Shown one piece after another: positions 4,112 through 5,951 of a DNA stretch of 57,107 bases. The translations under genes and the position numbers were made by a program. Source of the DNA: a virus. The stretch's first letter is position 1; the number at the start of each line of letters is the position of its first letter. A model generated the notes under the pieces. It was not told the origin of the DNA, did no database searches, and saw only the letters and a program-made list of their open reading frames with translations. The stretch lies in UHGV virus genome UHGV-1334481; one strand, 5' to 3'.

Positions 4112-4350
4112 TATTCATCATCCTCGTCTTCGTCATCTTCATCAGAGTCTTTGTCTTTTTTGTCGTCTTTATCATCGCTATCTTCGTCATCTTCATCGTC
4201 AGGTTCTTCACCTTCGATTAAGAAATTACGAGCGATAGCGATTTTTTCTTCTTTAATTAAATCAATCGTTCTTGCAGCCATGGCTTCAGCAAATAATTTA
4301 CGAGCGGCTACGAGGTCGTTTGATTTAATAGCTTCAATTAAACCTTCCAT
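4111..4350 (-). CDS. 67: prohead core protein gp67 (acidic C-terminal tail)
   Basis: 79-aa ORF with poly-D/E tail; position between 20 and 68 as in T4. Confidence 0.8.
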
Positions 4351-5923
4351 TAAAAATCCTCTTGTTCTTGGTCGGGGTCTTGGAAACGAGCCTCTTTAGA
4401 CTCTTCTTCAATTTGCTTGGCTTCTTGTTCTATTTCTTCATCAGTCATCTGCAAAATATCTTTCATAGCAGTTCTGTGAGAAATATATTTACCAATAAAT
4501 GGTTCTGCCATGGTTAGCATATTAATTCTTCGTTCCAAAATTTCTGCTTCTTTGAGTTCAGTAAAGTAGCTATCCCGATGAAATTCTATCTTAATATTAT
4601 TTATTTCATCATTCCACTCATCTTCTGTGATTATACCTTTAAGCAAAAGATTTGTTTTAAGCGGATCTAGGAAAACTTCTTCAAACTTGTGCTGAAGCTC
4701 ACGAATAAATTTAGCAAACGTTAATTCATCACGTGTAATGCTAGTTCCAGAATCAAACATCACACCGCCTTGTTGGTCTTGCGGAATGCGTGAAAGAGGA
4801 ACACGTAATGCCATATAAAGAGCTTGTCTAAACCAACGAACATCTTCCATATTGCCGGTATTATCAGCACCAGGAAGAGTATCAACTTCTGTCACAGCTT
4901 TACCATCGCGGCGCTGCAGCCAGTAGTCTTCGGTCATAGACATATTATGCTGTTGATTTTTTATTTTACCTGTTGATGCATCATATACTACACGGTTTTT
5001 CATCGTGTTCATGACATGTTGCATGTGCTCGGCAGCTTTACGAGCGGGCATATTACCTGTGTCTACATACCAAACACGACGGTCAGGAGCACGAGTAATA
5101 CGATAAATGACTACAGCATCTTCTAATAATTTTAATTGGTTAGCAGGTTTAACAGCACGATGCAAATACCCGATGATATTTTTACCACAGCAATCGACTA
5201 ATCCAGAATGGGCATAAACGACGGCAGCTTTCGGAATTTTTATTTTTGTGCCAGCTTCATACATTCTACCATCACATGCGTATGATTCGTGCGCAGTATC
5301 ATATATAAAATATTCTTTGTAACCTTTAACTATTTTTGTGCCAGCTTCAGTTTCTGTTATAATTTCACGAACATACTGGACTTGGCGAGGGTCTAATCTA
5401 CGTAATTCCTTTATGCCTTCTTTTGGACGTTTTGGATCAATAATTTTATGAAAGAAAATTCTTGAATCGACATACCAACGTCTAAAATGATCAGAACCTT
5501 TTCGTTGAAACGATAGATGATTTAATACATCATTAAATTCATCTAACATCATATTTTTAATTTTTGGGCTAAATTTAGATTTATCCAAATTTAACGCTAC
5601 AACTTCAGTATCATCTTCATAGACGATAGCGTCTGAAACGATTTCTGAAACTGCATTTCTACTTCATAGTTATTCATGAGATTACGATATGTATCAATAA
5701 GCTCACGAGTAGTTTTCATTCCTGGTTCATATGAACCAAAAATTGTTTGGAATGCAGCATTATAAGGAGAAGCAGCTTCATTCGAGCTTACTTCAAATTC
5801 TCTTGCTCCATCATCAAGCTTTGGGGCTGTAATGGAAACAAGATCTTCTTTTTCTTGGTCTTTAAAATTTCGTTCGTCCATTTTAGCCCATGGAGCAAAC
5901 AAACTTAATACATTAAATTTCAT
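4350..5923 (-). CDS. 20: portal vertex protein gp20, reading frame interrupted (apparent 1-nt deletion near 5656-5658)
   Basis: Two ORF pieces (5597-5935 and 4350-5588) sum to exactly 524 codons from ATG 5923; both match T4 gp20 (memory); downstream frame stays open upstream of its TTG. Confidence 0.85.
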
Positions 5924-5951
5924 TGTATTCTCCAAATGGGAATTATAGTTA

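Follow-up and report, generated by a model that had tools for sequence, protein, structure and literature searches.

The phage segment and its portal gene

The stretch of DNA analysed here, referred to as the window, comprises 57,107 bases given 5' to 3' on one strand, and numbers prefixed with w are positions within it. It is a segment of a T4-like phage of the genus Tequatrovirus, reverse-oriented with respect to the T4 map, which starts inside gene 24 (w10-540) and proceeds through genes 23, 22, 21, 68, 67, 20, 19, 18 and 17 on to gene 5, followed by genes 53, 4, 2, 3, 1, 57A, 57B, a tRNA cluster, e, denV, tk and accessory genes of the nrdC side. The nearest records are UGKSEcP2, Killian and EPIMAM01 at ~99 % identity, and none of the records compared is an identical counterpart. 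Both ends of the window fall within genes, and its first ten bases (w1-10, GTTTGGGTCT, in gene 24) resemble no relative, all of which read TGTGATGCCA at this place, while the remaining gene 24 is 99 % identical. These ten bases are probably contig-end junk; together with the gene-internal ends they fit a draft contig, which suggests that the window is such a contig in its entirety. Departures from UGKSEcP2 in gene content, namely a tRNA cluster (w34761-35492) of nine genes without the His and Tyr tRNAs of that phage, and a denV (within w42014-42913) with a 138-aa ORF of its own ahead of another of 157 aa, in place of the single 183-aa product annotated in UGKSEcP2, are ordinary mosaic variation.

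The portal, present in 12 copies per head, is essential. Its gene, gene 20, runs from w5923 down to w4350 on the minus strand, at its conserved position between genes 19 and 67 in the head cluster 18-19-20-67-68-21-22-23. The sequence-only reading that preceded this analysis had named it gp20, and both the PF07230 match and the T4 gene order bear this out: gene 20 of the window is a Portal_T4 (PF07230) homologue. The single uninterrupted frame of ~524 codons that would encode the full subunit is nevertheless absent from the window, as the gene is broken at codon 89 into the following features:

w5930-5933, minus strand: GGAG Shine-Dalgarno of gene 20 at a distance of 6 nt from the ATG, read directly from the sequence
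w5597-5923, minus strand: N-terminal piece of gene 20 (frame A), with ATG at 5923, 88 native codons, 20 out-of-frame codons and a TAG at 5599-5597
w5657-5658, minus strand: deletion site, one coding-strand T (plus-strand A) missing between w5658 and w5657
w4350-5663, minus strand: open frame B, gp20 residues 90-524 plus stop (4352-4350), with an upstream stop TGA at 5666-5664
w5597-5663, minus strand: overlap of frames A and B, 67 nt, the only place for a frame-restoring -1 shift
w5568-5655, minus strand: two adjacent hairpins in the mRNA, beginning just 3' of the missing base (-28 kcal/mol, z = -2.9)
w5586-5588, minus strand: TTG at gp20 codon 113, the earliest canonical start of frame B, 8 nt past the frame-A stop and without Shine-Dalgarno

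Frames A and B, read directly, are the two minus-strand pieces that had been described before, the native part of frame A ending with ...NLMNNYEV ahead of its out-of-frame stretch. Two details of that description had to be corrected, however. The pieces hold 108 and 412 sense codons and so do not add up to 524, the correct fact being a span of 1574 nt instead of the 1575 nt expected for 525 codons, hence one nucleotide less; and the downstream frame stays open not to about 5640 but to 5663, giving 437 open codons. The frame switch was placed by tblastn, as had been proposed, here with the UGKSEcP2 portal as query: residues 1-89 align at w5923-5657 with 98.9 % identity, and residues 90-524 follow in frame B with 99.8 % identity. 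As both flanking pieces are this close to an intact portal, the split gene is not a chance pattern. Frame B on its own matches Pfam Portal_T4 over profile positions 19-433 (E = 2e-189), and the intact UGKSEcP2 portal, taken as proxy, matches the gp20 chains of PDB 6UZC and 3JA7 (E = 0). This is the only gp20 locus within the window, and apart from the missing base the gene shows no decay and otherwise looks fully functional and under selection.

A deletion private to the window

At the deletion site the window reads GTAGAAATGCAG (in context GTAGA^AATGCAG), relatives instead GTNGATAATGCAG. The base that the sequence-only reading had supposed missing around 5656-5658 is thus truly absent, the gap between w5658 and w5657 agreeing within 1-2 nt, and the possibility it had raised that the two pieces might not be contiguous parts of one protein is contradicted by colinear alignments to gp20 homologues. 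A single gap appears in all of them, whether with SHFML-26, T6, T4, UGKSEcP2 or 14 other loci. When 120 nt across the deletion were used as query, 501 phage records matched and all 501 carry 121 bases; in the best match, EPIMAM01, the gap is the sole difference. Likewise, each of the 18 loci fetched possesses the extra base and an intact gene 20 of 524 codons. Among them, ten share a gp23 identical to that of the window and four an identical fibritin, all with portals of 524 aa, but at 97-99.6 % identity to the window none qualifies as isogenic.

The deleted allele gave no exact match in viral, metagenome or genome contig collections, neither of the truncated portal products is on record by exact-product look-up of both pieces, and the same kind of look-up did not retrieve the product of the broken 180-aa ORF described below. 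No sister sequence turned up among the complete genomes of E. coli, and no sister contig with any of the four private lesions of the window was found in contig scans by exact pattern, which for gp20 and 57B covered viral, metagenome and genome contigs, and for the 180-aa ORF and A7 alleles viral contigs. As to its local context, the deletion converts AGATAAT to AGAAAT and thereby creates a copy of a direct repeat 14 nt away, beside an 8-nt repeat, TCTGAAAC, occurring twice.

Further indels and the substitution background

Translated alignment of the UGKSEcP2 genes against the window revealed frame breaks besides that of gene 20, among which three further indels are private and frame-affecting:

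w32186-32207, plus strand: in 57B/Acb1, a 22-nt perfect palindrome (+1 nt), leaving the gene in two pieces of 34 and 131 aa
w33211-33217, plus strand: A7 tract (A6 in relatives) immediately ahead of where a 77-aa internal-head-protein gene should stop; this stop is lost, adding 21 codons
w50518-50522, plus strand: tandem duplication of TAATT, disrupting an accessory ORF of 180 aa (ORF 50262-50809)

The 57B palindrome of the window, GCGCTGGAAGTTCTTCCAGCGC, was found in 0 of 560 records. Most relatives have a 21-nt quasi-palindrome, GCGCTGGAAGAACTTCAGCGC, whereas the 21-mer of phage FT (vB_EcoM_FT) is the exact reverse complement of this T4-type sequence; the window carries the FT type plus one G, which frameshifts the anti-CBASS gene 57B/Acb1. 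The change looks like template-switch mutagenesis. Mixing of two strains in a De Bruijn graph, considered as its source, was rejected by reasoning, as the hybrid has k-mers that exist in neither orientation. The TAATT duplication, seen in 0 of 350 records, extends a 6-bp palindrome to a stem of 7 bp closed by a 4-nt loop, and at w33211-33217 all best-matching near-identical records have A6. Over the same region, no split genes were detected when the UGKSEcP2 proteins were compared with Killian, EPIMAM01 and T4.

Most of the ~20 indels that separate the window from its closest relative are polymorphisms shared with other phages, and on this ground several differences were not counted as errors. 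An A8 tract at w36526-36533 (plus strand) divides a 157-aa accessory ORF into pieces of 97 and 89 aa (ORFs 36249-36542 and 36454-36723), while in most relatives the tract is A7 and the ORF is undivided; the A8 form is shared by 11 or more independent contigs (ENA, NCBI, Logan, JGI) and by two phage records. It is a real recurrent length polymorphism, possibly a slippage-prone switch. In the minus-strand gene 12 (w16483-16506), the 4-nt loop of a 10-bp hairpin, AATTCGATCC-loop-GGATCGAATT, is flipped in frame, reading TACT in the window and AGTA in UGKSEcP2, Killian and T4; the flipped allele is present in at least ten other phage records and represents a natural small-inversion polymorphism. 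Two intergenic homopolymer differences proved to be shared natural polymorphisms as well.

Substitutions give a different picture from the private indels. Between w11 and w25000, where 8-13 relatives were compared, there are 25 private substitutions, 16 of them synonymous and nine mostly conservative. Six of ten structural proteins tested, plus gp23, have exact database matches (gp23, gp17, gp16, gp14, fibritin, gp11 and gp10). Because mosaic recombination makes large proteins unique, such look-ups are unsuited to counting private substitutions, and the count of synonymous and non-synonymous changes was used instead. The substitutions are consistent with normal purifying selection, and only the indels are out of character. 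Taken together with the absence of split genes in relatives, this implies that the gene 20 lesion is either very recent or not biological.

Three of the four private lesions are not homopolymer errors: gp20 has lost a single base in GATAAT, 57B has a quasi-palindrome made perfect, and the 180-aa ORF has gained a 5-nt tandem duplication. Among simulated random indels, the share achieving an equal gain in hairpin stability was 5 % for gp20, 0.13 % for 57B and 4.7 % for TAATT, which by Fisher's method combine to p ~3e-4 for the three hairpin-stabilising lesions, a piece of post hoc arithmetic. Their nature points to polymerase misalignment, template switching or slippage, either in the phage or in vitro (e.g., during amplification). 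The hairpin argument itself is post hoc, and for gp20 alone, where the hairpin has only 4 bp, it is weak.

Possible expression of the split portal gene

After loss of one base, restoring the portal frame requires a -1 shift (or +2) within w5663-5597. As the sequence-only reading had noted, there is no slippery heptamer of the X XXY YYZ type in this overlap. Moreover, full -1 re-pairing is impossible for every codon in it, the best reaching two of three bases, and the overlap has no homopolymer run of four or more bases, and thus no substrate for transcriptional slippage, for which the criterion was ~7 or more A or T. Translational restarts seem equally ill equipped. The first restart codons of frame B are the TTG at codon 113 and the ATGs at codons 125 and 126, all of them lacking a Shine-Dalgarno upstream; for the TTG at 5588 the absence of a ribosome-binding site had been pointed out before, and the preceding 20 nt, CTGAAGTTGTAGCGTTAAAT, confirm it.

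The pair of mRNA hairpins that follows the deletion is unusually stable, as 1 of 200 shuffles folds equally well. Its sequence is common to relatives with an intact frame, however, and hence belongs to gene 20 as such and is no peculiarity of the window, and no slippery site precedes the hairpins. Frame A ends with the codons TTG TAG (w5602-5597), and a TTG in the portal frame lies 11 nt downstream (w5588-5586), an arrangement resembling the take-off and landing sites of a translational bypass; we consider this a coincidence, a match of 3 nt being easily due to chance. A hop from TTG to TTG would yield a product in which 23 residues of the wing domain are swapped for 19 unrelated ones. Neither the two-frame nor the bypass-like arrangement is conserved in any of the 501 records or 18 loci. 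Nor is there an insertion between the two pieces, be it a mobile element, an intron or an intein, the span being 1 nt shorter than in relatives and not longer.

In the T4 portal structure, the wing domain comprises residues 70-254 and 378-450, a soluble construct begins at residue 74, and N-terminal deletions inhibit head assembly (PMC4493910). A break at residue 89 therefore falls inside the wing domain, and both fragments should be inactive; a fragment initiated at residue 113 would lack the first ~40 residues of the segment 70-254.

Origin of the lesion

We regard the split portal gene as a sequence-level lesion and not as a biological mechanism, and consider it, with a probability of somewhat under 60 %, to be an artefact of sequencing, assembly or amplification. 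Accordingly worded, the consensus of a normal T4-like phage would have acquired an error during sequencing, assembly, polishing or amplification prior to sequencing, such that the base would be missing from the record yet present in a viable phage whose real gene 20 would be intact. This reading is favoured by the uniqueness of the deletion among records, fetched loci and contig collections, by the selected appearance of the remainder of gene 20, by the draft-contig-like ends of the window and by the absence of a rescue signal. It is also favoured by the richness of the window in indels, with three more private frame-affecting ones as opposed to no split genes among relatives, and an excess of indels combined with healthy substitutions is the pattern of consensus errors. 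On the other hand, the lesions in gp20, 57B and the 180-aa ORF could come from the phage polymerase and not from an in vitro reaction, and a raw long-read assembly would show a far higher indel density than the window does. These same three lesions belong to classic spontaneous classes and not to those typical of sequencing platforms, and all of them raise hairpin stability, which speaks for a possibility that we take seriously but would bet against, namely a real and very recent null frameshift of gene 20 in a non-viable or complemented genome, headless if left alone. Such a genome might have been sampled from non-clonal material (a metagenome, an enrichment or a high-multiplicity lysate), in which intact co-infecting phages supply the portal, or from infected-cell DNA, and its mutation may stem from replicase misalignment or template switching. 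In line with this, hairpin inversions are truly polymorphic in the lineage, as in gene 12 and in the 57B 21-mer of FT, the deletion copies a nearby direct repeat, and the substitution accuracy of the window is high. However, a portal-null genome is not expected to form the majority of packaged DNA, four private frame-affecting lesions without an excess of damaging substitutions would be an odd spectrum for real decay, and the contig scans gave no sister contig with any of the four.

Far less plausible, and in our view very improbable, is that the deletion is real in a viable phage that obtains enough working portal by recoding or in two pieces. It could do so through a -1 shift in the 67-nt overlap aided by the hairpins, through a hop from TTG-TAG to the TTG at 5588, or through termination-reinitiation giving two fragments. 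The stable native hairpin pair starting right after the lesion and the matching TTG codons are what such routes could draw upon, but the overlap and the restarts offer none of the other signals, from heptamer and homopolymer to Shine-Dalgarno. Programmed recoding sites are normally conserved, whereas this arrangement has no counterpart in 501 relatives. The products would be damaged too, either by the exchange of wing-domain residues after a hop or by their loss from the fragment starting at residue 113, and head assembly is blocked by N-terminal deletions (PMC4493910). Least credible of all, to the point of being almost negligible, is a natural split or rearrangement in the lineage, caused by a mobile insertion or an intron or compensated by a second intact copy. 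Homing-endonuclease insertions are indeed common nearby in relatives, and four of the fetched loci (L014-L017) have extra ORFs between genes 18 and 19; nevertheless, nothing is inserted in the window, where gene 20 measures 1574 versus 1575 nt, is colinear with all relatives and is the sole gp20 locus. The order in which the sequence-only reading had placed its explanations, that is, error, defective genome and lastly recoding, holds up, and what our analysis adds to it are the direction of the required shift (-1), the three further private indels and the location of the break within a structured wing domain.

If the lesion is an artefact, it is a matter of annotation only: gene 20 should then be regarded as intact or marked as frameshifted in this record, and the three other private indels are equally suspect. 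A real lesion would be no more than a common kind of null allele in an essential gene, and would tell us merely that non-viable or complemented genomes were among the DNA sampled. Scientific weight would accrue only if a viable phage carried the deletion, implying recoding without signals or a functional split portal, for which the sequence offers no support.

Comparison with known systems

Programmed -1 frameshifting, as in dnaX of E. coli and G/GT of lambda, shares with the window two overlapping frames and a stable downstream mRNA structure, and the bypassing in T4 gene 60 shares the stop-adjacent TTG matched by a TTG downstream. In contrast to these systems, the overlap lacks a slippery heptamer, the arrangement is conserved in no relative and the bypass product would be damaged.

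The lesion itself can be compared with frameshifts templated by quasi-palindromes or misalignment, which were reportedly first described in T4 rII (the Ripley model). As in that model, three of the four private indels, the gp20 deletion included, are situated in palindromes or repeats and render a local hairpin more perfect. For gp20, however, the hairpin has 4 bp and is matched by 5 % of random deletions, which makes the link suggestive at best, and in vitro polymerases could give the same pattern.

As to its consequences, the lesion is reminiscent of the amber and temperature-sensitive mutants of T4 gene 20, classical conditional-lethals whose expected phenotype is a lack of head initiation, in that portal function would be lost in an otherwise normal genome. 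It differs from them in being a frameshift and not a suppressible nonsense or temperature-sensitive mutation, in residing in a wild T4-like strain and in having no known permissive condition.

Whether it is an artefact or a null variant, the split portal is not a new biological system. While its reading frame is broken at codon 89 in the wing domain and encodes no intact product, unlike T4 gp20, the gene is the same as that of T4 (PF07230; PDB 3JA7, 6UZC) and stands in the same place between genes 19 and 67; its nucleotide identity is ~98 % with T4 and reaches 99.4 % with other Tequatrovirus phages, and once conceptually repaired it gives a product of 524 aa.
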